This document shows positions 4,778 through 63,508 of a DNA stretch of 64,000 bases, piece after piece. The notes below the pieces were generated by a model. It was not told the DNA's origin. It saw nothing but the letters and a program-made list of their open reading frames with translations, and made no database searches. The translations under genes and the position numbers were made by a program. The stretch is from an uncultured virus (IMG/VR IMGVR_UViG_3300000868_000017) (lineage: Duplodnaviria; Heunggongvirae; Uroviricota; Caudoviricetes; Thumleimavirales; Hafunaviridae), in IMG/VR virus record IMGVR_UViG_3300000868_000017, one strand, 5' to 3'. Each line of letters starts with the position of its first letter. Position 1 is the stretch's first letter.

Positions 4778-4780
4778 CTG

Positions 4781-5005: not shown

Positions 5006-5055
5006 TTACTCCGGTTGATGCAACCTTTTTAGTGTGCGACTGTCTCGGGTTTGTT

Positions 5056-8940: not shown

Positions 8941-8957
8941 ATAGGCGATTTTTTGGA

Positions 8958-9503
8958 ATGAGTGATGTTCAAATAGTAAACGTCGTCGGGTCAGGTGCGG
9001 TTAGCTCTGAGTTCGACTTAGAAGAACTCAGTTCCGAGATCGGTAGCGAAGCCGAATACGACCCTGAGAATTATCCGGGGATGTATCTCCGCTTCGAGGA
9101 GAAGCCCACCATCACAGTCTACCGAACGGGCAAGTTCATCATCTACGGAGCTGACAACGTTGATGAAATCTACGCCGCGCGGGACTTCCTCCTTTCACAA
9201 CTTGCCGACCTCGGGGCAATTGAATCACCCGAAGATACGGGGTTCTCGATACAGAACGTCGTGTGTACGGGGAAACTTGAGAGCGAGCAAAACCTCAACG
9301 CGGTCGCCATCCAGTTGGGATTAGACCGGACTGAGTACGAACCTGAGCAGTTTCCCGGTCTGATTTACAGACCAGAGAAACACGATTGCGTTATTCTGAT
9401 TTTCGGGAGTGGGAAGGTCGTATTAACTGGGTGTAAGAGTTCAGATGCCGCACAGAGAGCATTAGATGGGCTAATCTCTACGATTCAGGACTTGGGCGTA
9501 TAA
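8958..9503 (+). CDS. tbp: TATA-box binding protein
   Basis: Two TBP repeats: NVV...YDPENYPGMYLR...YRTGK and NVV...YEPEQFPGLIYR...IFGSGK. Confidence 0.95.
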   Translation: MSDVQIVNVVGSGAVSSEFDLEELSSEIGSEAEYDPENYPGMYLRFEEKPTITVYRTGKFIIYGADNVDEIYAARDFLLSQLADLGAIESPEDTGFSIQNVVCTGKLESEQNLNAVAIQLGLDRTEYEPEQFPGLIYRPEKHDCVILIFGSGKVVLTGCKSSDAAQRALDGLISTIQDLGV

Positions 9504-11155
9504 ACTCCTAGCTCCCCTTCCAGCATCTCGATAAACTCTACGTCGGTAAGGAACTCCACATCCTCCTTCTCGATGTAGGATGGAACAACATTTGACACCA
9601 CAAACATCCGCACATCGAGGTCAGTCCATTCTTTCGCAAATTGCTGTTCTACTCGATCTTCACCGTCTCGGTCAAGATGGGATAAGAAGGAGCTTCCCGG
9701 CTTCTCATTCAGCCACGTTTCCACCTTCTCGGGGAAGGGTTCCCCCGATTCTGCATCGTAATGCTCTGTATCTTCTTTGTAGACCTTAGAATCGAACTTA
9801 TGATTGAGTCGGATTACCCCGTTTGCTGTCCTCATATGCGTTTCTGGTAAGAGGAATTTACACTCGATAAACCAGAGTTCCTCATCCGATTCATTGACCA
9901 CGATTAGGTCGATCTCACGTTGGTCTGATTTTGTGAACCACGAGCTGTAATAGCACTCGTAGCCATCGTTCTCCAGATACTTGTAGAGGTTATACTCAAA
10001 CTGTTCTCCGCGTTTTTTACACTCTTTGTCTAACAGGGCTACACCACTCGGTGAATCCCCATTCTCCAATAGCGGGAACAACTGGAACCGAATGAGTTGA
10101 TTGTAGTACCGTGGATAGAGGATAACTGGTTCATCCCTCGTAACAGGAGGTCTTCCAGCATCCTGTGTAACAACGTGTTCCCGAATGACTTTGAAAAGGA
10201 ACGGGTGGGCATCTACGTTATCATCGCTAACAAGAAGGCTATCTCTGACTTCCTCCCAATCATCACCAAAGACGTCTTCCCCACAATGATTTACTCCTTC
10301 TTCAGCGGCGACAGGGAGGGTTCCCGTCTCGTCGATGTGTGCTATCCCTTCCTCGGTGAACTGAGAATCAATACAGTCTAAGAACTCTTTTAGATCGAGG
10401 GCGTCAACGCTGTCAGGTAGCGATTTGTTGTATATTTCATTAAGCGTCTTATCCGTGGAGAGCATGAACGCCATCGTGACGATGATCTCGAAAAACGTGC
10501 TTGTGAATTCCTGTAACGAATCTATATTATCTACATCAGTTTTCTCAAAGCTTCGAGCTTCTTCATGCGCCCGGTAGAAGAACTCAATGCCCTCCTTACT
10601 CCCACCAGCAAGACTCTCCAAGCATCGAATGAAGCAGTACCTATACTCCGACTCAAAGAAAAAATGCTCACCAACGAACGGCTTGGGGTTGTGCGGCTCT
10701 ACTATCGGTTTGACAGCGTAAATGAAGCCGTCCTCAACTTGGTCTAACTTTCGGTAAACCTTGTCGATGAGATCATAAATCAGCCCTATCGTTTCGGGTA
10801 GACCGTCTTCCTGATACTCAAACTGCTTATCTCCGAAATCGTCTCGTTCATAGACCAATTTCAGAAGGTAACTCGTATAGGCGAACTTCCGAACGGGGAG
10901 TTCAGAGTCGAATCTCTCATAGAATGAGTGCGAAATTCTATTCAGTTCATCAATGAGAAGGAGTATCAGGTGGTTCTTGTCATACTCACTCAGCATAGTC
11001 ATCGCCCGGTCTTCGCTAACGATTTGCCGGGTCTGGTCTATCTGTTCTTGAACGCTCTCAGGGTCAACTACGTCTAAATCAAGGCAGTTGGGGCAATAGA
11101 GGTTCCCGAATTTATGACCGACCAGTAGAGGAGTATCGCAGGTCGAGCAGGGCAT
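9485..11155 (-). CDS. Zn-ribbon protein with C-terminal NERD/PD-(D/E)XK nuclease domain
   Basis: N-terminal CSTC...CPNC; C-terminal GEQFE...EIDLIV...FIECK. Confidence 0.7.
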   Translation of the reverse strand: MPCSTCDTPLLVGHKFGNLYCPNCLDLDVVDPESVQEQIDQTRQIVSEDRAMTMLSEYDKNHLILLLIDELNRISHSFYERFDSELPVRKFAYTSYLLKLVYERDDFGDKQFEYQEDGLPETIGLIYDLIDKVYRKLDQVEDGFIYAVKPIVEPHNPKPFVGEHFFFESEYRYCFIRCLESLAGGSKEGIEFFYRAHEEARSFEKTDVDNIDSLQEFTSTFFEIIVTMAFMLSTDKTLNEIYNKSLPDSVDALDLKEFLDCIDSQFTEEGIAHIDETGTLPVAAEEGVNHCGEDVFGDDWEEVRDSLLVSDDNVDAHPFLFKVIREHVVTQDAGRPPVTRDEPVILYPRYYNQLIRFQLFPLLENGDSPSGVALLDKECKKRGEQFEYNLYKYLENDGYECYYSSWFTKSDQREIDLIVVNESDEELWFIECKFLLPETHMRTANGVIRLNHKFDSKVYKEDTEHYDAESGEPFPEKVETWLNEKPGSSFLSHLDRDGEDRVEQQFAKEWTDLDVRMFVVSNVVPSYIEKEDVEFLTDVEFIEMLEGELGVYTPKS

Positions 11156-11197
11156 AAGACCAGATTTGTACCCTATTGCACATAATGTCTCCCCTGC

Positions 11198-13615
11198 TCA
11201 TTTACACGGCGAGTACCAGCACTCCGGGCACACCGCACAGTCGTCCGTCTTCTCCAGCTCACCGTCACCACACTCCGGGCAGGTGAGCGTATCACTCCCG
11301 GCGTCCTCCTCCGAGACGATACCGAGACGTAGTGCGGCCTTCTCGCTCACCTCGCCCTTGAGGTACAGTTCAAGCAGATCGTCGTCGCGGTCGCCGCCGT
11401 CGTCCAACTTGTTGTCAACGCGGGTCGTAAGCACCTGTTCGTTCCGAGAGCCGTCCCGGTAGACGGTGAGGCCCTTGATAACTGCGCCGCGCTTGTCCGC
11501 ATCGAGGGCGAGACGGTAGGCGTTGCTCACGTCGTAGTGAGTCGCCCCGTTCGGGAGGTTCACGGTCTTGCTGATGCCTGAGTCGCAGAACTCTTGGAAC
11601 GCTCTCTGCATCAGCCCGTGCTGTTCAGAGGACAAGTCCTGCGTCGTGACGAAAACCTCCTTGATTCCCTCGGGAATCAAGAGGTCGTCAACGCCGTCGA
11701 ACTCGTTGTTCCGCATCAGCGTCTCCGCTTCCTCCTTCACAGCGTCCACGTCGATGCCGCTGGCCTCCAGCGTCCGCAGGAAGTAGTCGTCAAACTCCAC
11801 GAGCAGATCGTCGCCCTGAATGTCGTCACCGACGTTCTTGAAGTTCGCAACGTTGTAGGCAGGCTCACAGCCGCCCGTCGTGTTCCCGATCATCGAGGTC
11901 GTCCCGGTCGGGGCGATAGTCGTGATGTTGTGGTTGCGGATGGGGAAGCCACCAGCCCAATCCTCGGGGTCGAGGCCCGTCCGACGAGCGAACCAGTCGG
12001 CGTACTCGGTCGGCTCCGCGTACTTCGACTTGTCCCACGCATCAAACACGCCGCGCTCCAGAGCGAGGTTGTGCGACGACCACGTTCCCTTCCGGTCGAT
12101 GTACCGCATAACGGCGCGGGCCATCTCGTAGGAGTCCTGTGTCCCGTAGGGAATCCCCATCTGGAAAAGCATCTGCGCGAAGCCCATGATGCCGAGGCCG
12201 ATCTTCCGCATCCCGTTCACCTGCTCGGTGATCTCGGGGATGGGGAAGTCGGACTGAGTGACCACGTTATCGAGGAATCGGACACCCGCCTCGATGGTTC
12301 GATCAAGGTCGTTGAAGTTCACCGCCGACTCGAAGTACCACTCCACGGCCCCTCGGGTGGATAGGTCGCCGCTGGCTATGTCCGCGAGCTTGTCCTCAAG
12401 GAACTCGTCGTAGGTCGGAGCGTCCTCGTTCAGAATCAGCGAGAGGTTGATGTGGCCGAGGTTGCACGCTTCGTACTCGACGAGCATCTGCTCGGCGCAG
12501 GGATTAGTCGCGTTCATCTGGTACTCCGGGTGCTTCTCCACGTCGAAGGAGTGCTGGCGGTTCGACTCCTCGAAGTTGAACAGGCCCGGTTCGCCGTTGC
12601 GCCACGCCCCGTCGATCATCACGTCCCAAATGAACGCGGCGGGAAGCTCCATCGGCTCACCCGCTTCGAGCCGTAGACCCTCGTGGCCCTCCCACTTCTC
12701 GCGGAGGGACACGCGCTCGCCGTACAGCTCACACTCGATCTCGTCGGCGTAGTCCCGCCAAAGGTTCTCCTCTACGATAGCGCCCTCGCCGTCGTCAAAC
12801 GCCGAACGCGGGTTGTCCTGATACTCGGGAGAGTAGAAGTACGCGGACTCCTCTCGGACGGTGTACGCTTCCGTGTAGTCCGTCTCGGGGTCGTAGAGAG
12901 TGTAGGAGTCCTGAGCCTCAACTGCCTCGATGAAGTTGTCCGTCGTAGCGACCGAGATGTTGAAGTTCGCAAACTCGCCCTCGTTCCGCTTCGCCACGAT
13001 GAAGCGGCCAATATCGGGGTGGTCGGCGCGGAGAATACCCATCTGAGCGCCCCGACGCTTCCCGCCCTGCTTGACCTGATTGCACGTCTCATCGAAGACC
13101 CGCATGAAGCTCACGGGGCCGCTTGCTTCGCCTCCTGTGGACTTGATGAAGGCTCCCCGAGGTCGGAGGTGGGAGAACGCATAGCCGACGCCGCCGCCGC
13201 TCTGGAACGTCAGCGCGGCCTGCTTAGCCGTCTCGAAAATGTCCTCCATGTCGTCGCGGGGTTCCAGTACGAAACACGCTGAGAGCTGGTTCATGTCGGT
13301 TCCCGCGTTCATCAGCGCGGGACTGTTCGGCATGAACCGAAGTTCGGTCATTTGCGTGTAGAACTCGTCAGCCCACTTCTGGAAGTCCTCGACGTCTTCA
13401 GCTCCAGCGACGTTCTCAGCGACTCGGGTGAACATCTCCTCGATGCTCTCGGTGATCTCGCCGTCGCTGTTCTTGCGGAGATACCGGGCGGGGAGAATAC
13501 CGTGGGCGGCGTTGTCGGTGAGGCGTTCTTCTACGGTGAGCGATTCGTCGACGGTCTTGATCGGGGTTTCGAGAGTCTGTTCAGATTCGTCTTTTTCAGT
13601 TGTGACTACGGACAT
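11198..13615 (-). CDS. nrdJ: Class II (B12-dependent) ribonucleotide reductase
   Basis: FMPNSP, LSACF, QGGKRRGA, TNPCAE, CNLG, IAPTGT, ISKTVN, YRDGSR motifs; C-terminal Zn ribbon; no small subunit gene. Confidence 0.95.
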   Translation of the reverse strand: MSVVTTEKDESEQTLETPIKTVDESLTVEERLTDNAAHGILPARYLRKNSDGEITESIEEMFTRVAENVAGAEDVEDFQKWADEFYTQMTELRFMPNSPALMNAGTDMNQLSACFVLEPRDDMEDIFETAKQAALTFQSGGGVGYAFSHLRPRGAFIKSTGGEASGPVSFMRVFDETCNQVKQGGKRRGAQMGILRADHPDIGRFIVAKRNEGEFANFNISVATTDNFIEAVEAQDSYTLYDPETDYTEAYTVREESAYFYSPEYQDNPRSAFDDGEGAIVEENLWRDYADEIECELYGERVSLREKWEGHEGLRLEAGEPMELPAAFIWDVMIDGAWRNGEPGLFNFEESNRQHSFDVEKHPEYQMNATNPCAEQMLVEYEACNLGHINLSLILNEDAPTYDEFLEDKLADIASGDLSTRGAVEWYFESAVNFNDLDRTIEAGVRFLDNVVTQSDFPIPEITEQVNGMRKIGLGIMGFAQMLFQMGIPYGTQDSYEMARAVMRYIDRKGTWSSHNLALERGVFDAWDKSKYAEPTEYADWFARRTGLDPEDWAGGFPIRNHNITTIAPTGTTSMIGNTTGGCEPAYNVANFKNVGDDIQGDDLLVEFDDYFLRTLEASGIDVDAVKEEAETLMRNNEFDGVDDLLIPEGIKEVFVTTQDLSSEQHGLMQRAFQEFCDSGISKTVNLPNGATHYDVSNAYRLALDADKRGAVIKGLTVYRDGSRNEQVLTTRVDNKLDDGGDRDDDLLELYLKGEVSEKAALRLGIVSEEDAGSDTLTCPECGDGELEKTDDCAVCPECWYSPCK

Positions 13616-13794
13616 TTGTATAGTATAGATTAGTAGGTGAACTACTGGGAGTGATTCACTTCATCGAGGGGTTTGTCCTCTATCCTACCCTCTCCTAAGC
13701 GAACTACTTAGAGTGAAAAACACCCCATACTACCCACTAAGGGGTAATACGGGGTGTGGATAATTCGAGTGAATTACTCCGCTCGTCACGAAGT

Positions 13795-13833
13795 TCCTCA
13801 CTCTAATAGACGGCGACTGAGGACTTAAAGATG
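13795..13833 (-). promoter_or_regulatory. Repeated viral promoter (class A), upstream of nrdJ
   Basis: Minus strand CATCTTTAAGTC-N10-GTCTATTAGAGTGAGGA; five copies in the window. Confidence 0.75.
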
Positions 13834-13978
13834 CCGATATAAGTCTTAGTTTGTTAGTCTTCTGTCGGAAGGAACTGGTCGAGGACAGCTTTAATCCGAC
13901 CTCGTTTGAGTGCTAATGCCATGAAGAAGCCGAGTGCCCAAGCTACGAGGGGTGGGGTGTTTGCGAGTTCGGGGAACA

Positions 13979-14485
13979 TTAGAGTCTGATTAGGAATGTG
14001 CTGTCGTCCAAGTAGTCACGAGCAATGTCAACTCCAGCGGCGGCGCTGAAGTTTTTGGCTCGGAGGTGGGCGATAGGAGCCGTTCGCCAATCGTTTTCGT
14101 AGTGGGCATAAAACTCACGACCGGGTTGATCGTCAGCTCGCTCGAATATCGTTACGTGAAGTTGCATCCCCGGAGCAACGTGGTCGGGAGCGTCTTCGTT
14201 CAGAAGAACCCACGACCCCTCGCTCTCGCGTCCATCGGGGAGAGATTTGAAGCAAGAAATTGGATTCCGGCGGAAGCCCACATCGACCAGCTCCACCTCG
14301 ATGCTTTCTTCATCTTCGTCGAACTTCCCGACGTACTGGTTGTAGCCGATCTTACCGACTGCGTACAACGGAACGCCGATTCGGTCGCCAATACCGTCGA
14401 GTGTGTTGTGGAGTCGGGGATACCAGTACCGCCGGAGATCTTCTTGCCAGTCGTCGTCGCTATCGAGTAGGAATGTTGGAAGCAT
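13979..14485 (-). CDS. Hypothetical protein
   Basis: 168-aa acidic ORF. Confidence 0.7.
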   Translation of the reverse strand: MLPTFLLDSDDDWQEDLRRYWYPRLHNTLDGIGDRIGVPLYAVGKIGYNQYVGKFDEDEESIEVELVDVGFRRNPISCFKSLPDGRESEGSWVLLNEDAPDHVAPGMQLHVTIFERADDQPGREFYAHYENDWRTAPIAHLRAKNFSAAAGVDIARDYLDDSTFLIRL

Positions 14486-14509
14486 AGTGTTATAAAGACT
14501 TAAGAAGCA

Positions 14510-14544
14510 ATCTTTAAGTCATAGCACCGCGTCTAATAGAGTGA
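14510..14544 (+). promoter_or_regulatory. Repeated viral promoter (class A)
   Basis: ATCTTTAAGTCATAGCACCGCGTCTAATAGAGTGA, 6 nt before ATG 14551. Confidence 0.75.
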
Positions 14545-14550
14545 AGACAG

Positions 14551-15381
14551 ATGGATTTTTCGAGTGTAACCGGGTCGCTTAGTGACCTCTCTAACTACGT
14601 GAGGCCGGATGGAACGCCAGCAGAAGAAGGACAGGAAGAAGACCAGCTCATCGAGTTTGTGACCGAAAAGGAACTATACGGAGCTATCCCTGAGCCGATT
14701 CCGGCGAACAAAGTTCTGCCCGATTGGTATAGGGAACTTGGTCAATACATCTCAGAAGATGGAGGTAGTCAGAATAATCGGCCCGGACTCAATCGGTCTA
14801 CTGTGAAGCGGTGCGTCCCGTTTATGGAAGCTATGACGATGGGATGGATAATTCCGCTTCCCGCTGAACTTCATGTCGTTGCAGAAAATGGAGATGTTGA
14901 CTGTAATTGGGAATTTGAGAGAGAGCTTATTTCGGGGCACTCTTTGGGTCAAGTTGGAGGAGATATGTTCCCCGGAAACCAAAACCCAATTCTGAAGTTC
15001 CATAATTATTGGAATATTAAGGTTCCAAGTGGATATACAGTTCTATTCACTAATCCTATGAACCGCCCCGGCCAGCCGTTCGTTCCGTTCTCCGGGGTAG
15101 TTGACCTTGATAATTACTTCAACTTCGTCAACTTCCCCTTCATGTGGATTGCCGAGATATTCGATGGGGTTCTTCCTGCGGGAACCCCTATGATTCAGGC
15201 TATCCCGTTCAAGCGAGATACAATGTTGAGCGATGCGACCGCGCGATCAATGAGCGAAGATGAAGCTCTTGAACAGGCGAGAACTAAGACAGAACTTTCC
15301 TCACATGAATCAACGTACCGAGATGATAGGTGGATAGCCAAGGATGGGTCACGGATGATTCCACAAGATGTGGATAAATGA
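14551..15381 (+). CDS. DUF6065-like protein
   Basis: PEPIPA-x-x-x-LPDWY, TVKRCVPF-x-EAM-x-x-GW-x-IP, LKF-x-N-x-W, SGVVD-x-D, GTPM-x-Q-x-IPFKR pattern. Confidence 0.65.
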   Translation: MDFSSVTGSLSDLSNYVRPDGTPAEEGQEEDQLIEFVTEKELYGAIPEPIPANKVLPDWYRELGQYISEDGGSQNNRPGLNRSTVKRCVPFMEAMTMGWIIPLPAELHVVAENGDVDCNWEFERELISGHSLGQVGGDMFPGNQNPILKFHNYWNIKVPSGYTVLFTNPMNRPGQPFVPFSGVVDLDNYFNFVNFPFMWIAEIFDGVLPAGTPMIQAIPFKRDTMLSDATARSMSEDEALEQARTKTELSSHESTYRDDRWIAKDGSRMIPQDVDK

Positions 15382-15389
15382 AGCTCTAA

Positions 15390-17477
15390 TTACAGCTTCA
15401 TTATGAACGCCAGCGCGTAGTACGGCGGGCGGTTTTCGTGAGCATCATTTCCACCAACCGAACTCGTCTGTCCGGTGATGTTGTGGGAGTGATTGCCGTC
15501 GTTAGATGTGTTTCCAGAGACGTTGTGAGAGTGATTACCGCTGTTGCTAACTAAGTTTTCTCCGTGAACCGAATTTCTGTAATTCGTCCCGTAACTGTTG
15601 GAGTTGTTGTTGTTGTTTCTCGCATCATACTCGTTGTACTGAACCTCAACTGCGGCGTTGTACCTCGAATTTCCAGCATATTGAGCAAGACCGTGGTTGT
15701 GAGAACCACCATTGCTGGTATTACCACTTACATTGTGGCTGTGTCCACCCGTATTGTTGATGCTGAAATTACCAGTACCGTGTGTGTGACTTGGGATTTC
15801 GTTACCGGAAAGCTCCACAGAGTTTTCTCCGCCGGTATCTCCAGAGCTGTATTCGTCACCAGCACCAACTACGAACCTATCTCTTAGGTCAGGTGTTCCA
15901 TTGCTTCCATCACACAGAGTCCATCCGCTTGGAACACTACTGCTTGAACCAGACCACATACTGATGAGGCCGGTAGGAACGAGAGTATTCCCATTCTGCT
16001 TAACTGCTCCAGCATCTATATCCTCACTAACGCTTAGGGAGCCGGTGATTTCATCTCCATCTTGATTGACGTATTGGTAATCGGGGTTGACGATTACCTT
16101 CCCGTCTTCAACGGAAACTGCGTCCGTTTTAAAATCAAATTCGTAGACGTTTTCTTCTATTTGCTCTCCGAACGAATAGACGTTAACGCCGTTATCACCG
16201 GGTCGGAGAAACCACCTTCGATAAAGGGAGTCGAACGATGGGTCATTCGATGTATTTTTCCGCGTAAGCTTCACACGAATCTGTGGGTTCGTCCCCGCGT
16301 CAACCGCCGTCGAGAGATCTTCGTTGGAGTCAATATCAGCGACGAGTGTGTTTCCGTTCTCGTCTTCAACATCCACCACAACGCTCTCGCCGTCGAACGT
16401 CCGGGTGAACCGAAGCAAGTCCCACCCCTCGATGCGTGAATCCGGTTCGGGGCACGACACGACGACCTCGCCGTACTCCCGCGCTCCGGTGTGAACATCG
16501 TCTACATAGACGCTTCGAGTAGAACCGGAATCCGTCGTCTTCGAGCCAAACCAAATGTTCGAGATAGCCGTCGCGTCCATCGGGCGACCGCTGATGATAG
16601 TCTGACCGTCGATTACCACATCGAGGTTCCCTGCGTCGAAGTCCGGGTCAACCTCGAATGCGTAGGTCTGCCCGGCAGTCCACTCGGGGAGTAGTTCCGT
16701 GCCGTCACTCAGAGAGACGTTCCCCGCACCGTCGTTGAATTGAATCTCCAACTCGCGGTTCCCTTTCTCGTCGTCCAGTCGGATGATAGACTCGTCGTTG
16801 ATGTTCGACGTGTCCTCAGAAACCTCGAAGGAGAACTCTAAGTCTTGAGAAACGGGAACGTCCCGCTGAAGTTTCGGTGTGTACGTTTCCCCGACCGACG
16901 TGATCTCGGCGCGACTCCCGGTGTGAGAAATACCGGAGGTGTCGCTCCACGACCACGCCGAATGGTCGGGGGAGATACCGCTCTCGAAGTCAGCGACGAC
17001 CTGCTCGTTGATGAGCTTGAGACTCCCCGCATCGAGGCGAGTCCTTGCAGGAGTCTCGTGGGAAACAGAGAACCCTTCTTCTCCATCGAAGTTTGACGTT
17101 TCATCATACCCAACCTCTGGACGAATATCATAGTCCTCGCCGTCAGATACGTATAGGAGTCCCGCAGTATCCTTGAACCACGTTGTTCCATTTTTAACTT
17201 CATCTGGATTGGCCGCCTGAATGAACTTGAAGCCACCAAGTTGTTCGGGGGCCATTCCTTCAACAGTCTCGGCGTTGGCTACCTGACCATCATTATCCGG
17301 GTCAATAGAGTTAGTGAGGTCAACAAGGTGCTGAACGTCCTCAATTAGATTGTGAATGAGGAAATTATCGAACTCTACGATGGGTGGGTTTTCTTTCGTG
17401 TATCTATACCCATCGGGGAACTCAGCACGTTCATTAACGTCAGCTCCCCATTCTTTTAGCTTAGAAGTGTACGTCAT
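15390..17477 (-). CDS. Tail fibre with collar domain and HxH tip repeats
   Basis: Follows baseplate genes; PTGLISMWSG...W-x-LCDG-x-NGTPDLRDRF collar; HTH/HSH/HNH repeats; ends NRPPYYALAFIMKL. Confidence 0.88.
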   Translation of the reverse strand: MTYTSKLKEWGADVNERAEFPDGYRYTKENPPIVEFDNFLIHNLIEDVQHLVDLTNSIDPDNDGQVANAETVEGMAPEQLGGFKFIQAANPDEVKNGTTWFKDTAGLLYVSDGEDYDIRPEVGYDETSNFDGEEGFSVSHETPARTRLDAGSLKLINEQVVADFESGISPDHSAWSWSDTSGISHTGSRAEITSVGETYTPKLQRDVPVSQDLEFSFEVSEDTSNINDESIIRLDDEKGNRELEIQFNDGAGNVSLSDGTELLPEWTAGQTYAFEVDPDFDAGNLDVVIDGQTIISGRPMDATAISNIWFGSKTTDSGSTRSVYVDDVHTGAREYGEVVVSCPEPDSRIEGWDLLRFTRTFDGESVVVDVEDENGNTLVADIDSNEDLSTAVDAGTNPQIRVKLTRKNTSNDPSFDSLYRRWFLRPGDNGVNVYSFGEQIEENVYEFDFKTDAVSVEDGKVIVNPDYQYVNQDGDEITGSLSVSEDIDAGAVKQNGNTLVPTGLISMWSGSSSSVPSGWTLCDGSNGTPDLRDRFVVGAGDEYSSGDTGGENSVELSGNEIPSHTHGTGNFSINNTGGHSHNVSGNTSNGGSHNHGLAQYAGNSRYNAAVEVQYNEYDARNNNNNSNSYGTNYRNSVHGENLVSNSGNHSHNVSGNTSNDGNHSHNITGQTSSVGGNDAHENRPPYYALAFIMKL

Positions 17478-41759: not shown

Positions 41760-43165
41760 AGATGTCGCTCGGTGAAAGCGGCCCGCCCCGGATTGATGTT
41801 ATCCGGGGCGGTCGGCCCCCTGAAATGGGCCGGGGGATATACTCCCCGGCGTTAAAGGCCCGGAAACCCCGGAAAACCGGCTTAAGTCCCGGTATCGGGG
41901 GCGTTGCCATATGCGCCCCCCGTTGGAGGTTTTCGTTAGCACGTTGCCACCTTCAAACGGAATTACCGCTAATCTCCCCTCGAACGGTCGGGGGCGGGTA
42001 AGTAGGCCAGTAGGTAGAATCTCCCCGTTTCGGCCCCTGTTTCGGGCCGACCGGAGAGACGGAACTACGGGCCGAATTGACCCTTACGAAATGTAGGAGA
42101 CGGGGCCGGAAACGGCCCGTCTTTCACGGTGAAACGGCCCTTAGGGGCCGAAAACCCCGGCGTGGAAGCCGGGGCCGGGATTCTTAGTAAGGTCGTTAGT
42201 ACGGAAACGTCGGATTAACCGACAATTCCCCGAGAGACGGGGAGATAACCGGGAAACGGCCCGAAACGGCCCGAAACCACATAGGCCCGTCTTAGTACGG
42301 GGGAGATTTACCGGCCCTACGGGGCCGGGGCGGGAAAGAGGGGGCCGGTCGGACGAAACGATATGTGATCGAGAAATCCGGCCCGGCCCCTGATACGACA
42401 AAGGAAAGGCCCCGAATGCGCCCGGAGATAACCTCAAAGGTAGCATAGTTCGGCCCCGAACGCCTTTCCCGGTGTTACGTTTGAAGTACGGCCCGAACGG
42501 GACGGCCCGCGAAAGCGGCCCCGTCCCGGTATGTAGGCCCGAAACCGGAAAGCGGCTTTCCGGGGAGTATTTTCAGGTGATAGGGGGAGTATGGCCCGGA
42601 CAAAGAGCGTCCCTTAGGGCAAAGAGTGACGAAAATAGACACATCGAGCGATTAACGTCTCGAAACTGTCGAACCAGATGTATTAGATACATCTATGGAA
42701 ACGTGAATCCCACCCACTTTCGGATGCGGTTACGGTTAAAACAATAGGCGCTTAGCCTATGGAACGAAAGTCTATGCCATAAACAGGTTCGTAGGGAGAA
42801 GTACGTAGTAGTCAAGAGCGAATGCTCATAGCGATTAACGCGAAAGACTCTTTGAGATTTGAAACTCCGCATAGCGAGCAGATCGCACAGCGTAGCGTAT
42901 AGCAATCGGCTTTGAGGGGTAAGTGTCACACTTAATTCGCTCGTTCGTATGTTCGGCCCGTCCCGTAAGGGACGGGGAAGGATAGACGTAAAGGTTCCAG
43001 CGACAGCCAACCCCGAATTGACGGGGGCTTGAGGCTTTACGGGGCTAAGCCCCGTGCTAAGCAACCACGACTTGAGTGAGTGAGAGTCATCTCTCTCCTT
43101 GAGTCGGAATGGGGGGTTTGGTGCTTCCCCTTCGGAAAGTAGCACTAAGTGACACCCAACGAACT
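41760..43165 (+). ncRNA. Candidate large structured non-coding RNA or very long leader
   Basis: No credible ORF; more than 15 GC-rich hairpins, several with GAAA, GTAA, cTACGg or cTTCGg loops; TTATATAT at 41732. Confidence 0.5.
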
Positions 43166-44059
43166 ATGTCTGTGAAAGTCAACAGCGACGGCGACTTCGT
43201 TGAGAATACGGTGAGCAAGATCGGCGCTAACCCTGTTAGTGACCTCTACGACCTTCTCCAGAAGGACGACTACTCCGTGGTGAGCCTCGCTCACGAGGTT
43301 CGCAAAGCGTTCGGAGAGGATTCTGTGAAGAAGGGCGGCGAGAGTGAAATCGCTAAGTGGTGTGAAGCGCCCCGGAATGTGAACCTGATCGAGCCGTGCG
43401 AGGCTAACGATAGCGACGGCTCTCTCGGGAGAGCGTTCTACCTTTCCACCGACTACACCGCCAACGACTACAACGCCTTTAGTGGCAAGTACGACTCCTT
43501 AAAGGAGGAAAACGGCGGGTTCGGTGTGAAGCCACTTGCCGAAGCGGATGAGTTCCAGCGTGAGCTACTGCTCTCGGAGGAAATCATCGAGGCAAGTGAC
43601 ACCGTGATGGTTCCCATCAACAGCGACGGGGAGCCGATTGTCCCGGTAGTGGCAAGTGAAGGTCGTCAAGAGGCGGCGGAAGGCTTCGAGGTCGGGAGTG
43701 TCCCGACTTACGAGGAAGCCGAGGAACGCCTCAAGACCCTTCTGAGTGACTACTTCGGAGAAGTCGAAGTCGATGAGACGGCGGAATCGAACGATAAGAG
43801 CAACAGCGGCGGCGACGGCGAGAGTGACACCGGCCTCGATCTTCCCGAGGAACTATTCGACCCTACGGAAGTGAAGGGTATCGGGAACAAGTACGGTGAG
43901 GCTCTGCTGGTTCACATCGTAGAGAATCAGATCAGTCTCAACTGGGAAGACTACGAGGGACACGTCGAACTTCCCGAGCCGGAGGTTCCCGACGTGAGTG
44001 AGATGAGCCAGCGCGAGAAGGACGCCCTTCTTCAGCAGTTGCTCGAAAACTCCGAGTAA
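43166..44059 (+). CDS. First early protein, acidic, with HhH-like motif
   Basis: EVKGIGNKY motif; ATG downstream of GTGACACC. Confidence 0.75.
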   Translation: MSVKVNSDGDFVENTVSKIGANPVSDLYDLLQKDDYSVVSLAHEVRKAFGEDSVKKGGESEIAKWCEAPRNVNLIEPCEANDSDGSLGRAFYLSTDYTANDYNAFSGKYDSLKEENGGFGVKPLAEADEFQRELLLSEEIIEASDTVMVPINSDGEPIVPVVASEGRQEAAEGFEVGSVPTYEEAEERLKTLLSDYFGEVEVDETAESNDKSNSGGDGESDTGLDLPEELFDPTEVKGIGNKYGEALLVHIVENQISLNWEDYEGHVELPEPEVPDVSEMSQREKDALLQQLLENSE

Positions 44060-44088
44060 GGCGCAAAGACTCAAAGACGCTTCAATAA

Positions 44089-44160
44089 TCCTTAGTGGCG
44101 ACACCGGGGTTCGACTCCCCGGAAGGGCCTCGGTAGCAACGGCTACCACGAGTGACACCT
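44089..44160 (+). ncRNA. Anticodon-less tRNA-like element, copy 1
   Basis: TCCTT/AAGGG stem, AGTGGCG linker, CCGGGG-TTCGACT-CCCCGG arm, GGTAGC/GCTACC hairpin. Confidence 0.7.
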
Positions 44161-44298
44161 ATGGAACGACGAGAGCGATACCCACGACGTAGCGGCGGCG
44201 CTGGCAGTCTCACGAACCCCCTTAGCGACGAGGATTATCGACGTGAGATGGACAAGTTAGCGGCGCTCAACGCGGCGGATAGTGAGGAGAGCGAGTAA
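44161..44298 (+). CDS. Small hypothetical protein (45 aa)
   Basis: ATG right after the RNA element; TAATG coupling to the next gene. Confidence 0.55.
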   Translation: MERRERYPRRSGGAGSLTNPLSDEDYRREMDKLAALNAADSEESE

Positions 44299-44627
44299 TG
44301 TTCTCCCCGAGGCTCGGGACGGTACGAACCTCCCAACGGGAGGAAGAAAACCAATGGAGCCACCGCGCTGACCTCAAGATCGACCAGAGGCATCGAGCCT
44401 TCGGAGCGGTAGTTGAGGAACGACGCGAGGGAGAACTGCTCGAAGGAGAGGAACTTGCTGAGTTTATCGGATGGACTCCTGACCCGAGTGAGATTCATCC
44501 CCACCACGAGAAAACGTCGGAGCCTGAGGAATACGAAGGCTCCGGCCTGACCGACGACGAGATCGAGGCGAAGAAGAAGGCCGAGAAGTACCGGCGGCGC
44601 TACTCCGAATACCACGACAGCGAGTGA
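44298..44627 (+). CDS. Hypothetical protein
   Basis: Coupled acidic ORF. Confidence 0.65.
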   Translation: MFSPRLGTVRTSQREEENQWSHRADLKIDQRHRAFGAVVEERREGELLEGEELAEFIGWTPDPSEIHPHHEKTSEPEEYEGSGLTDDEIEAKKKAEKYRRRYSEYHDSE

Positions 44628-44983
44628 CAACTATGAACGAGACACCGACTTTCAGCCGAGACGCAAGGAACTACGAATACGACCCTCTTTCTCACGGAGG
44701 GAACCGGCGGCGGGAGCGACGGATTCCGATGAGTGCGATTGACCAAGCGATTGAGAATGGTGAGGCACACCTCGGTCGCAAAGGACGGGTTCTCTTAGAG
44801 ACTCGATGGAGCGGCCAGCTCATCACGGTAGTCATCGACCCGAGGGATGAGTCGATCATCACGACCTACCGAGGGACGGGGAAGAAGCTCAAGAGCCTTC
44901 AGAAGCAGGAGCAACGACGCAAAGAACGGCAGAAGAAGATTCGAGAGGGCCGGGGAGCGGCATATACCGGCGCTTGGATGTAA
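44624..44983 (+). CDS. DUF4258-like (RelE-fold) basic protein
   Basis: SH-x-x-x-R-x-x-ER-x-I...I-x-x-AI-x-x-G...VV...IIT-x-Y pattern. Confidence 0.6.
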   Translation: MTTMNETPTFSRDARNYEYDPLSHGGNRRRERRIPMSAIDQAIENGEAHLGRKGRVLLETRWSGQLITVVIDPRDESIITTYRGTGKKLKSLQKQEQRRKERQKKIREGRGAAYTGAWM

Positions 44984-45195
44984 ACAGCAAAGACTTAATA
45001 CAGCAACGTTGTCTCTTAGAGTGAGGAACTTTTCGGGGACAACGATTCGATGCGAGTAACCCCAAATGAAACGACCACATTCCCTGAAACCGGACTGTAA
45101 CTGCTGGTACTGTGACTTAGAACGAGCCAAGCGAGCCGATCATCGACGAGGTTACAATCGGCTCTAAAGACTCAAGTAAGCAACTCTAATCCTTT

Positions 45196-45268
45196 GCTCC
45201 GAGTGGCGGAAACTACGGTTCGACTCCGTAGCGGAGCCTCTGGTAGTGAAAACTACCGGGTGACACCG
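45196..45268 (+). ncRNA. Anticodon-less tRNA-like element, copy 2
   Basis: GCTCCG/CGGAGC stem, AGTGGCG linker, CTACGG-TTCGACT-CCGTAG arm, GGTAGT-GAAA-ACTACC hairpin. Confidence 0.72.
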
Positions 45269-45562
45269 ATGGCAGTAGCAGAAAAGACACCAACGACAGA
45301 TCGACGCATCGACCTAAGCGAAGAAGACCTCGAAAAGAAGATCGGAGACTACGCTTACCGACTCCGCAAGGCTTCGGTGGCGAGGTACTACGAGGAACCC
45401 CAATCGTGGGGAGGGATTGACGTAATCCCGAGTGAGGAAGAATACCTGATTCTCGGCATCGACGGGGAGTGGCGAGAGCCGATTCCCCGAGAGGAACAGG
45501 CTATCGAGCAACTTGTGGCGCTGTTCGACTCGGCGCTGGAAAAGGCCCTGAGCGACCTTTAG
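45269..45562 (+). CDS. Hypothetical protein
   Basis: ATG right after the RNA element (MAVAEK...). Confidence 0.65.
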   Translation: MAVAEKTPTTDRRIDLSEEDLEKKIGDYAYRLRKASVARYYEEPQSWGGIDVIPSEEEYLILGIDGEWREPIPREEQAIEQLVALFDSALEKALSDL

Positions 45563-45568
45563 AGAACG

Positions 45569-46891
45569 ATGTACGACAACTACTACCCCGACTTCCACGA
45601 CCCGGAGATGAACGACGACGCAAGTTACGACGACCGCGACGAACCCGGCTTCGATATGGACGAGCTGGACGGCTTCAACAACCCGATGGAGAAGGTGGCT
45701 CACCTATGAGCAACGCCGTAGAAATCGACCGGCTGGCGTTAGCGACTCTTGCCGATGAAGTGAGTGAGGCGCTGAAGAACTGTGGCCGGGATTATCGAGA
45801 GACGGCGGCTGGCTACCAGCTTGCTGAGGCTCTTGATGAGGCATACTCGGCCCTCGATTACGAACCAGACTATGAGCGGTGATATTCTTGCCCAACGAAT
45901 CCGCCGAGAGCGATACCGAGAGTGGAAGCGACGACGAGAGCAACGCGACTCCCTTCCTGAAGATCGACCCGAGGGATGGCGGGAGCGACGACGACGAACC
46001 ACCAGCGGCGGGAGCCGTGATGGTTTCGAGGAAACCGAGCGGCCCCAAGCTGAGCTTGGCTCCTACGGCGGAACCGAACCACGAAGCGAAGCCTGAGGTT
46101 GTGACAATATGAACGAGTACCACCTAATCGACCCGACAGAACCATACTTCGATGTTGGAAAAACCGGCGTTCAGTTCGATATTATCGAGTCCTTCCCCAC
46201 GAAGGAAGCGGCGGAACACGTCCTCGAAGCAAACCACGGACTCCAAATCATCAAGGGATGAGTCTCGAAAAGCACCTCATAGACCGGCTGAAGGAGGACT
46301 TGGACGTATTCGCCGCTGAGTATGCGGTGGATGAAGACGATGACCTCGATGCGATTTTCGCGGCGACAGACCTTCTCGAAGAAGACCTCGATGGTCGCTG
46401 GATTATCTACGAGAACTTCACCGCTGACACCGAGGGTTATCCCCGTGCTGTGGTGGAGATCGAGGTGTTCACCGATGCGAAGGAATCGGAGTTCGAGCAA
46501 GCGGAAGCGGTCTACCAAGCAGGATACGCATAATGGATATTCTGGAAATCGCGGTTCAAGAAGTGATGGCAGAGGACGACGACTACGTGAAGCCCGGCAC
46601 GGTCTACGAGACGCCGAACGGCCACTACATCGTGGAGTGAGAATGTCAGTTATTGGATTCACCGACCACCCGACGAGAGAGAATCGCTACGAGATCATAG
46701 TCACCGCCGAATCGGACGTGGATGCCGTCGTAGCGTTCAACGAGGCGTTTGACGACGACGAGAACTACACCGAAGCCTACGACGTTCACCAATACGACTC
46801 CGAGACATTTGGTGTGTTCTTCTGGTCGGAAGACCCGATAGACACCGACGAAGAACCGCTGGTTCTCCCCATCGAGGAGGTCGAAGCATAA
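45569..46891 (+). other. Run of short coupled early ORFs (45569-45709, 45706-45882, 45879-46112, 46109-46261, 46258-46533, 46643-46891)
   Basis: Acidic ORFs chained by ATGA/TAATG overlaps; no recognisable families. Confidence 0.6.
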
Positions 46892-47559
46892 TGACGTGGG
46901 ACGATTACCCCGAGGACTGGATGGGGAACCCGGACGGTCGGGACTACCACTACCGATTCCACGCCAACGACGAAGAAGCGTGGCGGAAACTTCGGAAGGC
47001 CCGCTGGATGGGGCGCTGGTTCGAGCTGTACCCGAGGGATATGAAGCACCTTCGGGTGAAGTTGCCCCACGTCACCCTGAAGACCTACGATCATAAGGGC
47101 CACATCGAGGGGATGGCGACGTATTCCTGCTCCCCTGATTGGCAGGTCGTTCCCTACTCCCGAGGGAAGTGGGAGATGAAGCACGGCTCCCGTGGCGGCT
47201 CGAAGCTCCGATGTGAGGAATACACCGGAGATACGTGGGGAACGGTGACTGTCGAGTTCACCGTCGAGGCAACGCCGGGAGAGATTAAGGACGCTTACGA
47301 GAACGGCGTCAACGAGGCCGAGATCGAGACTTCCATCCGAAATGGGATTCGTTGGGCCGTCGACGAGCGTATCGACGAACTCCGCGAGGAGGAATGGCAC
47401 TACCAGAACGAGGTCTGTGACCACGACCACGTAGTGAAGGTCAAAGGTCGGAGCCACCCGTTCGCTTACTGCGAGGACTGTCAGAAGGATTGGGAGGACG
47501 AGATGGACTTCCAAGAGGATTACCTGAGCGACGAGCTGACTCTGGTTGGTTCGGTATAA
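46891..47559 (+). CDS. Hypothetical protein with C-terminal C-x-H...CxxC
   Basis: 222-aa coupled ORF. Confidence 0.7.
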   Translation: MTWDDYPEDWMGNPDGRDYHYRFHANDEEAWRKLRKARWMGRWFELYPRDMKHLRVKLPHVTLKTYDHKGHIEGMATYSCSPDWQVVPYSRGKWEMKHGSRGGSKLRCEEYTGDTWGTVTVEFTVEATPGEIKDAYENGVNEAEIETSIRNGIRWAVDERIDELREEEWHYQNEVCDHDHVVKVKGRSHPFAYCEDCQKDWEDEMDFQEDYLSDELTLVGSV

Positions 47560-51048: not shown

Positions 51049-51349
51049 ACCGACGAACATCCTGCGGTGTCCCCCGGTAGTATGGAAGAAAATATTGAGA
51101 AGATCGAGCAAGCCGACTACGATTACTTCTACTCCATTCGGAGGAAGGCGTGTTGGCGACGGCGTGGAAAGTCGAAACCTCGCCGCGATGTATCAGAGAT
51201 AATCAACATCGAGCGGCGGTACTGGCAAGAGTAATGGCGAAACGGGGAGCGCCCCCGTCGTCGGGAACTGGTCGTCCCGGCCTATGATGAGCTGACCAAA
51301 AGCGGTAAAGACTTATAGATACTATTCCGAGTCTTAGAGGTTACAGAAA

Positions 51350-56940: not shown

Positions 56941-57010
56941 ACCTCCAAAGAAGAAGTCTGTCTATTAAGTCTTTGCCATGCCAGCGCGAGGGAATAAGAC
57001 TCAAAAAGGA

Positions 57011-57048
57011 ATCTTTAAGTCATAGAACCGCGTCTAATAGAGTGAGGA
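57011..57048 (+). promoter_or_regulatory. Repeated viral promoter (class A)
   Basis: ATCTTTAAGTCATAGAACCGCGTCTAATAGAGTGAGGA; one mismatch to the 14510 copy. Confidence 0.75.
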
Positions 57049-57137
57049 GGTCGCGGCGGCCCCCTCGACTGCTTTGCTTGGCTGAATCTGTAATGGTTTG
57101 ACTCGTTGGTATCCAGCCACCGCTACGGTGGCTTTTC

Positions 57138-57184
57138 CGAGTAGCTGGTACGCATAGAGGGATGGTTCGATTCCTCCCAACTCG
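57138..57184 (+). ncRNA. Anticodon-less tRNA-like element, copy 3
   Basis: CGAGT/ACTCG stem, AGCTGGTA linker, GGGA(T)GG-TTCGATT-CCTCCC arm. Confidence 0.55.
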
Positions 57185-57205
57185 ATGCGGTGTATCGCTG
57201 ATCTT

Positions 57206-57285
57206 GCGACCAATGGTGGCCCCGTGACCATGCCCCTCGACGGGCGTGGGCGGGGTCAAGGTGTGGTTCAATTCCCGCCGGTCGC
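57206..57285 (+). ncRNA. tRNA-like element, copy 4 (non-canonical middle arm)
   Basis: GCGACC/GGTCGC stem, TGGTGG linker, GGTG(T)GG-TTCAATT-CCCGCC arm, internal TGACC/GGTCA and ATGCCC/GGGCGT stems. Confidence 0.55.
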
Positions 57286-57367
57286 TTCCCCTTTGGTCAT
57301 AGGGGATTCTGTATCGCTACCTTGAGACGCGCCAGCGGCGGCTAACTGCTGGAACCAGAGAGACGCT

Positions 57368-57787: not shown

Positions 57788-57870
57788 TCGACGACCCTTC
57801 GAGTTCTCTACTTGCTACTAATTTCATCGAGCGGGGTATCCCTCCCGACGACTTCTAAGAATCATATAGG

Positions 57871-57909
57871 CATCTTTAAGTCTTAGTTCCACATCTAATA
57901 GAGTGAGGA
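57871..57909 (+). promoter_or_regulatory. Repeated viral promoter (class A), upstream of tRNA-Asn
   Basis: CATCTTTAAGTCTTAGTTCCACATCTAATAGAGTGAGGA. Confidence 0.75.
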
Positions 57910-57935
57910 CAAGCACCCGCCCCTCATTTTCTCTT

Positions 57936-58008
57936 GCCGAGGTAGCACAACTGGTAGTGCGACGGATTGTTACTCCGTAGGTTGCAGGTTCGAGTCCTGC
58001 CTTCGGCG
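57936..58008 (+). tRNA. tRNA-Asn(GTT)
   Basis: 73-nt cloverleaf: GCCGAGG/CTTCGGC, GCAC/GTGC D arm, ACGGA-TTGTTAC-TCCGT, GCAGG-TTCGAGT-CCTGC, discriminator G. Confidence 0.93.
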
Positions 58009-58088
58009 TTTCGCTACGACGCAAACACAATGTCGTAGCCTGAGCTGAACCGACTGACGAGCAAACCAGAGAAACCTATACAGCAATA

Positions 58089-62245: not shown

Positions 62246-63423
62246 ACTACGAACAGAACCTCACACCGACCGAACTGGAAATCATCGACTATCTGCCTGC
62301 GACCTACTCTGCTCTCTCCGAGGAGTTTGGGTTCTCCGAGTCAACGGCCCGCGATCACATCAGCAGTATCGAGCGGAAGGGAGCGCCGCTTGCCAAAAGA
62401 CGCATTGAGGGTGGGAAGGTCGAAGCGTATATGCGGAACGTGGAGAAGGAACATCCCACGAACCAGAACCGGACGACTGAGTACGGTTCCACCACGAAGG
62501 CGACGAAGACGAAGCGGCTGAACAATGCCGCCGGGTCACTCTCCCGACGACTCGATAAGGTGCTGAACGCGACGGAACCCGCTATCAGCGAAGTTCCCCT
62601 CTCCGAAGGCGGGGAGGAGGACGTGGTGATTCACGTCACGGACGACCACATTGGCGACGTTCTCGAAGACGAGTTTGGGAACGAGGTGTTCAACACCGAA
62701 ATCGCTCTTGAGCGGATTCGCTACCGGACGAAGAAGACGCTTGAGCTGGTCGAACGACAGCGGAAGGCCGGGTGGGAGTTCCACACGGTTCACTACCTGA
62801 TGGGCGGTGACATTATCACCGGCTCCGGTATCTACCTCGGCCAAGCGTGGGAGATGGAGAAGAACCTGAACGAGCAGATCGACATTGCGACTCAGGCTCA
62901 CTTCGAGCAGATTCGGATTCTCGCGGAACACTTCGAGGCTGTTCAGGTCGTGTGTCAGACCGGGAATCACGGCGAGATTCGCATTAGCGGTTCGAGTCAG
63001 CAGGCGAACGGGGACGACATCGTGTACCGGATGCTCGATGCGATTGTCCGGGCGTCGGAGTACGAGAACATCACCTTCATTCGGAACGACCGGACGGGGT
63101 TCACGAACTTCGAGATGCGGGGTCACAAGGCCCACCTCCGGCACGGGCAGAACGCGGCGGAACACATCGGGACGGCGGCCTCGAAGCGGGATTGGAGAGG
63201 CTGGATGCTTCAGCACGACTTCGAGATCGCCTACGCCGGGCACTACCACACGCAGGGCGTTGACCGCGTGATGAACGTTCCAGTCATTCGCTCGGGTTCC
63301 ATCAAGCCGCCGGGTGACTTCGAGGAGTCTATCTCCGAGTGGTCGATGCCCGGTGCGACGATTCACGGAGTCTCGGATAGCCTCCCGCTGACGTGGCTCT
63401 ACGACGTTCAGTATCAGCCGTAA
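62242..63423 (+). CDS. HTH-fused calcineurin-like metallophosphoesterase
   Basis: N-terminal HTH; TD-x-H-x-G, GGD, GNHG, HG, GHYH motifs. Confidence 0.85.
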   Translation: MNYEQNLTPTELEIIDYLPATYSALSEEFGFSESTARDHISSIERKGAPLAKRRIEGGKVEAYMRNVEKEHPTNQNRTTEYGSTTKATKTKRLNNAAGSLSRRLDKVLNATEPAISEVPLSEGGEEDVVIHVTDDHIGDVLEDEFGNEVFNTEIALERIRYRTKKTLELVERQRKAGWEFHTVHYLMGGDIITGSGIYLGQAWEMEKNLNEQIDIATQAHFEQIRILAEHFEAVQVVCQTGNHGEIRISGSSQQANGDDIVYRMLDAIVRASEYENITFIRNDRTGFTNFEMRGHKAHLRHGQNAAEHIGTAASKRDWRGWMLQHDFEIAYAGHYHTQGVDRVMNVPVIRSGSIKPPGDFEESISEWSMPGATIHGVSDSLPLTWLYDVQYQP

Positions 63424-63508
63424 AGACTCGGAGACTTAACGGTGAGTCTTACGGAAGACTTAAGCAACGTTCTCTGATTCTTAGCAGTACGCAAAAGCAG
63501 GACACTAA

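Follow-up and report, generated by a model that had tools for sequence, protein, structure and literature searches.

What are the two RNA elements that stand directly before the start codons of two early genes of an uncultured halovirus, and why should each of them look like one half of a tRNA? The elements, here called E1 and E2, lie in a 64,000-nucleotide stretch of viral DNA (IMG/VR record IMGVR_UViG_3300000868_000017), which is referred to as the window throughout. Megablast of 43000–47000 retrieves 41 phage records at 83–86% identity, all of them Haloferacalesvirus or close relatives, including HRTV-8, HSTV-3, HJTV-2, and Hardygib1, and judged by this similarity the window is an HF1/HF2-type halovirus (Haloferacalesvirus, Hafunaviridae). 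In the relatives, the region of E1 and E2 belongs to the first 5 kb of the left arm and is early-transcribed. We consider it reasonably probable that E1 and E2 are viral versions of the haloarchaeal t-element, a tRNA-like processing signal, and that they mark cleavage sites in early polycistronic RNA.

The initial annotation of this DNA had described two intergenic elements with shared loops and linker and with different stems that still pair; both are present and their pairing is confirmed. E1 and E2 have in common a linker that starts with AGTGGCG, a 6-bp T stem around the loop TTCGACT and, further downstream, a 6-bp hairpin (hairpin 2). The proposed tRNA-half fold, i.e., an acceptor-like stem stacked on a T arm, with a GG-bearing linker for the D arm and no anticodon arm, holds as well, and the two words reported upstream, AAAGACTCAA and TAATCCTT, were located at both elements. 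The features are as follows, where R1 is the covariance model and A1 the alignment introduced below, and ORF stands for open reading frame:

44065–44074 (+): AAAGACTCAA upstream of E1, alpha-type promoter motif
44086–44093 (+): TAATCCTT at E1
44089–44128 (+): putative t-element core of E1, comprising outer stem, linker, T arm, and unpaired C 44128; R1 65.7 bits over 44086–44131
44089–44093 and 44123–44127 (+): E1 outer stem, TCCTT paired with AAGGG, 5 bp including one U-G pair
44094–44103 (+): E1 linker, AGTGGCGACA
44104–44122 (+): E1 T arm, CCGGGG / TTCGACT / CCCCGG
44132–44147 (+): E1 hairpin 2, GGTAGC-AACG-GCTACC, helix 3 of the covariation test
44152–44163 (+): GTGACACC-T-ATG of E1, with GTGACACC at 44152–44159 and ATG at 44161; invariant columns in A1
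44161–44298 (+): ORF of 45 amino acids served by E1; no Pfam family
45166–45175 (+): AAAGACTCAA upstream of E2, alpha-type promoter motif
45187–45194 (+): TAATCCTT at E2
45196–45238 (+): putative t-element core of E2, comprising outer stem, linker, T arm, and unpaired C 45238; R1 66.8 bits over 45194–45240
45196–45201 and 45232–45237 (+): E2 outer stem, GCTCCG paired with CGGAGC, 6 bp
45202–45212 (+): E2 linker, AGTGGCGGAAA
45205 (+): G inside the E2 linker, homologous to the mapped HF2 5′ end T-4384; HF2 and window E2 align without gaps up to this base
45213–45231 (+): E2 T arm, CTACGG / TTCGACT / CCGTAG
45242–45257 (+): E2 hairpin 2, GGTAGT-GAAA-ACTACC
45260–45271 (+): GTGACACC-G-ATG of E2, with GTGACACC at 45260–45267 and ATG at 45269; from A1
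45269–45562 (+): ORF of 97 amino acids served by E2; no Pfam family, by position the homologue of HrrHF2_035

Upstream of both elements, AAAGACTCAA and TAATCCTT are 11 nt apart, and AAAGACTCAA occurs 12 times in the window at no more than one mismatch, compared with 4.08 matches expected. The GTGA within GTGACACC we take to be Shine-Dalgarno-like, in view of the 3′ end of 16S rRNA. The 5′ strand of the E1 outer stem, TCCTT in the window, reads CCCTT in most relatives. A search for related loci by means of the 97-residue protein returned a single locus. Folding energy is clearly low for E2 (z −3.05) and not unusual for E1 (z −0.94); since it is weak for E1 when taken alone, the support for the fold is comparative.

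Conservation was studied in the window and in homologous stretches from 17 of the 41 matched records, i.e., in 18 genomes, from which 21 distinct E1 and E2 leaders were drawn for alignment A1. Both elements are present in 18/18 genomes. Of the 378 pair cells in the three helices, 97.1% hold standard pairs, compared with 31.5–49.4% when the partners are slid by 1–3 columns in the same 21 leaders. Helices 1 and 2 are paired to 92.1% and 100%, respectively, and helix 3, which is hairpin 2, to 99.2%, with both sides changed in three of its six pairs. Altogether, double-sided changes are found in 9 of 18 pairs, and none of 500 shuffles reaches the observed covariation score, so that the covariation among halovirus homologues by which the initial annotation had proposed to judge its elements is indeed found. 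Because double changes occur within E2 orthologues alone, covariation is not wholly due to the split between E1 and E2: in the outer stem a U-A pair is replaced by C-G in HRTV-8, HSTV-3, and HSTV-4 and a C-G pair by U-A in Serpecor1, and in hairpin 2 G-C is replaced by A-U at two pairs. The linker GG is invariant in the HF-type viruses and is preceded by T, C, or A, as in the variants AGCGG of HF2 E1 and AGAGG of HSTV-4 E2; GCCTC and GTGACACC are conserved in A1 as well.

The E2 linkers of HF2 and Hardycor2 carry a 2-nt deletion, which argues that E2 is non-coding. In several deposited genomes (L022, L025, L026, and others), the gene after E2 is annotated from an upstream start, giving a coding sequence (CDS) of 366–369 nt that runs across the element, whereas in others it has 291 nt. 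The deletion argues against the upstream start, and the annotation of the gene downstream of E2 is corrected in this way.

Are the elements, then, tRNAs or what is left of them? ARAGORN and the Rfam tRNA model (RF00005) find no tRNA at E1 or E2, neither of which has a cloverleaf with anticodon arm, and the sole tRNA in the window is tRNA-Asn at 57935–58009. Neither is detected as a transfer-messenger RNA (tmRNA) with a tag reading frame, ARAGORN calling no tmRNA and Rfam matching none. At gathering scores Rfam reports nothing at either element; its best weak match is mascRNA-menRNA (RF01684) at E1 (44088–44128, 23.1 bits vs. a gathering score of 42.5), and E2 has no match to that family. There is, in agreement with the initial annotation, no full match to a known family and no ordinary tRNA call. 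Decayed tRNA genes or integrase attachment sites might be suspected from the tRNA-like T arm and acceptor-like stem and from the partial tRNA that serves as attachment site (attP) elsewhere in HF-group genomes, as mentioned by Russ et al. (2021; PMC8707807). This origin is extremely unlikely, as the two tRNA searches find nothing at the elements, the outer stem has retained its two strands and these covary, the location ahead of the ATG is conserved in 18/18 genomes, and the attP already described is situated elsewhere, at HrrHF2_450.

The family extends beyond the HF group. The exact pattern AGTGGCG-N5-9-GGTTCGACTCC occurs at 16 loci in viral contigs, nine of which come from six HF-group contigs. 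Among the other seven, L005, L008, and L009 show the same stacked stems made of different sequences; L004, L014, and L015, whose architecture does not fit, and L010, which has an extra D-arm-like hairpin, were left out of the models. Covariance model R1 (46 positions, 12 pairs) was built from 15 viral sequences only. Run over the whole window with filters off, it scores E2 at 66.8 bits and E1 at 65.7 bits; the next match (14.1 bits, at 63330) falls within an ORF and was dismissed as chance, as was a T-loop word within coding sequence at 12559. No third copy was found in the window with model R2. On whole records, R1 detects two copies each in HF2 and HRTV-8, three in the unrelated viral contig G002 (60.3, 35.9, and 35.3 bits), and two in another, G003 (58.6 and 35.9 bits). 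The new viral copies at about 35 bits have pairing stems of their own, followed by a hairpin and an ATG. A covariance model made from the copies thus finds the homologues that the initial annotation had anticipated, in other haloviruses, in two unrelated viral contigs, and in haloarchaeal genomes.

It is the haloarchaeal matches that identify the type of element. The same exact pattern, of 18 bases, was searched in one genome per prokaryote species and is found at no fewer than 121 loci. Of the haloarchaeal ones (at least 7), four have a T stem with an adjacent outer stem of at least 5 bp according to a script, and two more are recognized by R1 at 47.9 bits. Among the matches listed, none of the bacterial loci (at least 114) has the required adjacent stems; these matches (Collinsella, Chloroflexia, and others) were rejected as conserved unrelated sequence without stems. 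Among 151 sampled Halobacteria genomes, 32 have an R1 match at E≤1e-4, and matches that recur at an identical score within one genome are situated in rRNA operons. When 12 of the host loci were analyzed with Rfam, five displayed the order 23S rRNA, R1 match, and 5S rRNA, the latter starting at the last base of the match, and five further host loci have the same 5S-like sequence downstream, as judged by eye.

Exactly at this site, directly upstream of 5S rRNA, Haloferax volcanii has a tRNA-like structure known as t-element, and processing by tRNase Z generates the 5′ end of 5S rRNA, as described by Maier et al. (2015; PMC4326828), who cite Hoelzle et al. (2008, 2012) for it. According to the same source, t-elements are substrates of RNase P and tRNase Z; when flanking a CRISPR RNA they are processed in vivo, in Haloferax, by both enzymes, and they have been employed as portable processing signals (PMC4326828, PMC4946936). 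A primer used for the published H. volcanii t-element construct (PMC4326828) matches with one mismatch at three places in 2 of 401 genomes. At these places R1 scores 22.4, 22.4, and 20.4 bits, with 12/12 pairs formed in the two alignments shown, and for two of the three loci the Rfam matches put the end of 23S rRNA before the R1 match and the first base of 5S rRNA behind it. The R1 matches between 23S and 5S rRNA are the published t-element.

Across the whole family, alignment A3 contains 73 R1 hits (60 distinct), in which 94.6% of cells pair vs. 42–52% in slid controls, a comparison in which A3 is fitted to R1 and favors pairing and the controls carry the same bias. Both sides change in 6/6 outer pairs, and in the 40 sequences outside the R1 training set 450 of 480 cells pair. 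The linker GG is present in 60/60 distinct members, at offset 3 in 52 of them, and the T loop is TTCGACT in 17/17 rows from HF viruses and TTCGACT (7/10) or TTCGATT (3/10) in host 5S rows. E1 and E2 thus share with t-elements an acceptor-like stem that sits directly on the T stem without D stem or anticodon arm, a T loop of the type UUCRANY closed by G-C with a GG linker in the D-loop position, and recognition by one profile that also recognizes the published host element. The haloarchaeal t-element resembles them in detail: a 5–6-bp outer stem, a 9–13-nt linker with GG at offset 3, and a 6-bp T stem closed by GG/CC around a UUCGA(C/U)U loop. What differs is the context and not the fold. The host element is directly upstream of 5S rRNA inside the rRNA operon, whereas E1 and E2 precede early protein-coding genes. 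In the viral elements alone, the conserved hairpin and GTGA-ATG come next, and the same DNA carries a promoter whose mapped start site falls within the element. The host t-element has been shown to be cleaved, whereas the viral copies are known from sequence and fold.

How does the promoter relate to the fold? In HF2, primer extension on RNA from infected cells gave the 5′ end T-4384, which its authors place outside the intergenic repeats (IRs), and the 14-bp alpha motif of the class I IRs overlaps its promoter (Russ, Pfeiffer and Dyall-Smith, 2021; PMC8707807). From sequence comparison, AAAGACTCAA is the alpha motif of these class I IR promoters. HF2 nucleotide 4384 (AF222060.2) is the first G of GG in GAGTGGCGG, which belongs to the E2 homologue, 3 nt past the end of the 5′ strand of the outer stem. 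Class I IRs start, by our own count, at the G of GAGTGAGG, so that GAGTG is a shared initiator, and because T-4384 falls inside the E2 homologue, AAAGACTCAA belongs to the promoter, as does part of AGTGG. A numbering shift at 4384 was considered and rejected, five other published starts each falling on a purine after T/A with a TATA at the stated distance, and no evidence was found for a reverse-transcriptase stop as source of this 5′ end. E1 and E2 share with the class I IRs, which are early/middle promoters of the same virus group (PMC8707807), the alpha motif AAAGACTYAA and the GAGTG initiator; unlike the IRs, they are devoid of the beta motif (TCTTTAAGTC) and of most of gamma (CGTCTNNTAGAG; its core and beta are both absent from 44060–44100 and 45160–45210), having the tRNA-like fold and hairpin 2 instead.

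These data suggest a simpler account, in which E1 and E2 would be class-I-IR-like early promoters plus 5′-untranslated region, RNA would start from the G in AGTGG, and the hairpins would merely tune or stabilize the leader. It fits the mapping of T-4384 to the homologous G, the TT at −10/−11 in E2, the handling of these regions as promoter candidates by the HF2 authors (PMC8707807), and the fact that class I IRs and the region 44989–45030 share AAAGACTYAA and GAGTG without a tRNA-like fold. We nevertheless regard promoter function as unlikely to be the whole explanation. The 5′ strand of the outer stem lies upstream of the start and yet covaries, as seen from the two double changes among E2 orthologues and from 6/6 outer pairs family-wide; the same fold and GG linker occur between 23S and 5S rRNA in host operons; the fold is also found in contigs without promoter-like upstream sequence, e.g., L009; and GG itself does not vary, unlike the base in front of it. 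As the start is downstream of the 5′ strand, promoter-started RNA is without the outer stem and only read-through RNA forms the whole element. The covariation of the outer stem, together with the presence of the same linker in host rRNA operons, a setting in which one would not expect a promoter, means that the fold as a whole must matter in read-through RNA.

Read-through RNA of this kind is documented for HF2. There, cDNA primed at 2937–2924, inside the E1 T arm, reaches 1855 in RT-PCR (PMC8707807 supplement), so that upstream HF2 RNA contains the 5′ strand and T arm of E1. With cDNA primed at 15629, CDS 010 (3073–3093) was positive and CDS 005 negative (PMC8707807 supplement, Table S4 and Figure S2 legend), and a long transcript F2 extends from 3073 to 15629, thereby spanning E2 (PMC8707807). 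The positive and negative results imply a discontinuity of HF2 RNA between 2937 and 3073, an interval that includes the predicted E1 tRNase Z site at about 2945 and offers indirect evidence for a cut there; no T-run was seen at the discontinuity region in the window. Parts of the stretch occur in 20 entries of sequencing runs, and the four runs that were compared with it all consist of contigs. They include a metatranscriptome contig covering 45096–45291 across E2 and a contig start at 45211 in a run guessed to be RNA. Such contigs cannot show RNA ends and DNA carry-over is possible, so no inference is drawn from them.

If E1 and E2 are t-elements, the following course of events may be envisaged. 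In read-through early RNA, the element would fold as a mini-tRNA, its 5–6-bp acceptor-like stem stacked on the 6-bp T stem with a UUCGAYU loop and a 9–11-nt linker with GG at positions 4–5. Host tRNase Z would cut just 3′ of the outer stem (about 44128–44131 and 45238–45241) and the 5′ cut, by RNase P, would fall right in front of that stem (about 44088/44089 and 45195/45196). The cuts would separate the upstream cistron and leave a downstream mRNA headed by hairpin 2, behind which come GTGA as ribosome-binding motif and the ATG, and we infer that hairpin 2 protects the resulting 5′-monophosphate end. The promoter on the same DNA, composed of the alpha motif, a TATA-like stretch, and TT at −10/−11, would initiate at the G after AGT; RNA from this internal promoter, having no 5′ strand, should escape cutting and constitute a second mRNA class. 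Processing by host RNase P and tRNase Z had already been proposed in the initial annotation, and by analogy the host t-element provides a strong precedent for it; what that annotation missed is the promoter role of AAAGACTCAA and AGTGG.

Several observations speak against cleavage at E1 and E2. The stack of outer and T stems is mostly 11 bp long among family members, vs. 12 bp in tRNA, the folding energy of E1 is unremarkable, and the pairing in A3 has to be read with its fitting bias in mind. The 5′ end at HF2 4384 is preceded by a plausible TATA (about −28 to −33), and given this 5′ end inside E2, at least some RNA is unable to form the outer stem. HF2 2880–2937 and 4343–4385 were cloned as promoter candidates (PMC8707807). 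The discontinuity between F1 and F2 fits a terminator plus promoter equally well, and as F2 spans E2, cleavage at E2 is at most partial late in infection. Finally, other tRNA-like elements of H. volcanii are reportedly not cut by tRNase Z in vitro, a finding attributed to Hoelzle and coworkers in 2012, so that the fold alone is no guarantee of processing; it is mainly for this reason that our confidence is not higher.

Could the resemblance to tRNA serve binding instead of cleavage? Within the mRNA or as an RNA of about 40 nt, the element might titrate a tRNA-recognizing protein as decoy or regulator, candidates being a T-/D-loop modification enzyme, the CCA-adding enzyme, a viral RNA-repair enzyme, or a host defense nuclease. 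The determinants of the tRNA elbow are indeed kept (the UUCGACU loop, closed by a G-C pair, and the GG linker), and tRNA repair genes are reported from the early-middle region of HF2 (PMC8707807). We find such mimicry improbable, as its placement right in front of start codons, both in several unrelated viruses and at cellular genes, fits a role in cis better, no binding partner is indicated by any analysis, and the lack of an anticodon arm means that the element is not a target for anticodon nucleases. A translational switch, in which alternative pairings of the leader, e.g., of linker GGC with the GCC after the outer stem, control access to GTGA and ATG, seems very unlikely. The GGC/GCC helix does appear in minimum-energy folds of RNAs initiated at the start site, and GCCTC and GTGACACC are conserved, but this helix has just 3 bp, its partner in HF2 E2 is GCT, and GTGACACC-N-ATG is unpaired in 4/4 folds.

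Returning to viral t-elements as cleavage sites, their use would mean that haloviruses borrow the tRNA-maturation enzymes of their host to divide long early transcripts, and R1 would then point to dozens of cellular mRNA leaders that perhaps work likewise. A wider proposal, which we put forward tentatively, is that t-elements are a general mRNA punctuation in haloarchaea and their viruses, the archaeal equivalent of tRNA punctuation in mitochondria, and that the HF-type promoter is deliberately nested in them, giving two RNA classes per early gene. The primary transcript would start inside the element and be uncuttable, while read-through RNA would be trimmed by tRNase Z and RNase P to a hairpin-capped mRNA or, at other loci, to a near-leaderless one. 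If true, the virus could, in the course of infection, make the expression of a gene independent of transcription from upstream. Cutting of the viral copies is testable with existing Haloferax tools, i.e., recombinant tRNase Z, knock-down of RNase P by CRISPR interference, and t-element reporters.

Known RNA-processing signals in archaeal mRNAs are very few in number, and the literature yielded none for archaeal viruses. A description of t-elements in haloviruses was likewise not found in the full-text literature, subscription journals being outside this coverage; the nearest halovirus texts are passages on an attP tRNA-like gene (PMC8707807, PMC7230728). The initial annotation, too, knew of no such element in haloviruses. 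The kind of RNA as such is not new, being already described in the host; new is its viral, pre-ORF, and promoter-nested form.

Analogues exist in other systems. RNase P and RNase Z release mascRNA from a long transcript. Like E1, for which it is the best Rfam match, the mascRNA/MEN-beta tRNA-like RNA (RF01684) has a tRNA-like fold with a reduced anticodon region; it belongs, however, to a eukaryotic nuclear long non-coding RNA, and with a score below gathering it is an analogy only. Plant mitochondrial t-elements and mitochondrial tRNA punctuation also employ tRNA-like intercistronic structures at which RNase P and RNase Z set the 5′ and 3′ ends of mRNAs, but they occur in another domain of life, bear no sequence relation to E1 and E2, and have mapped transcript ends (PMC1920247).

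R1 elements also precede cellular ORFs. An ORF was called at 24 non-rRNA host loci, and at five of these (L169, L178, L183, L192, and L203) the ATG is at most 1 nt from the end of the R1 match, where a cut by tRNase Z would give a nearly leaderless mRNA. L203 has three elements within 1.5 kb. At five haloarchaeal loci (L170, L171, L182, L205, and L207), an R1-type element and a short C-rich/G-rich hairpin are followed by genes for proteins that start with a twin-arginine-type motif (LSRRK...); the two of these proteins that were scanned, from L170 and L207, both have a SipW-dependent-type signal peptide (TIGR04088). The copy at L174 precedes a gene for a Taf-fimbria-like protein.

Some other features of the window may be mentioned. 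A third promoter-like region at the left end, 44989–45030 (+), reads AAAGACTTAA ... TCTCTTAGAGTGAGGA, has no tRNA-like fold, and corresponds to the "IRB" fragment, HF2 3666–3706 (PMC8707807 supplement). A contig from the run guessed to be RNA covers 44602–45003 and then continues with 21 A's that are absent from the window, which might represent a tail on an RNA that ends immediately upstream of the IRB-like promoter, or else be artefactual. At 51235–51300 (+), Rfam reports Hammerhead_II with 38.4 bits vs. a gathering score of 37; a conserved hammerhead ribozyme in HF1-group viruses has been mentioned as needing further study (PMC7230728). At 56990–57330 (+), two T-arm-like words, GGTTCGATTCC and GGTTCAATTCC, lie in the roughly 250 nt downstream of a class I IR-like promoter, where neither ARAGORN nor Rfam (E≤1) makes a call, and a second class I IR-like promoter at about 57860–57915 precedes tRNA-Asn. 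A cluster of repeated AAGACTTAA / GAGTCTTA words at 63420–63470 (+) may correspond to the repeat-embedded bidirectional promoter region T-17064/T-17022 described for HF2 (PMC8707807).

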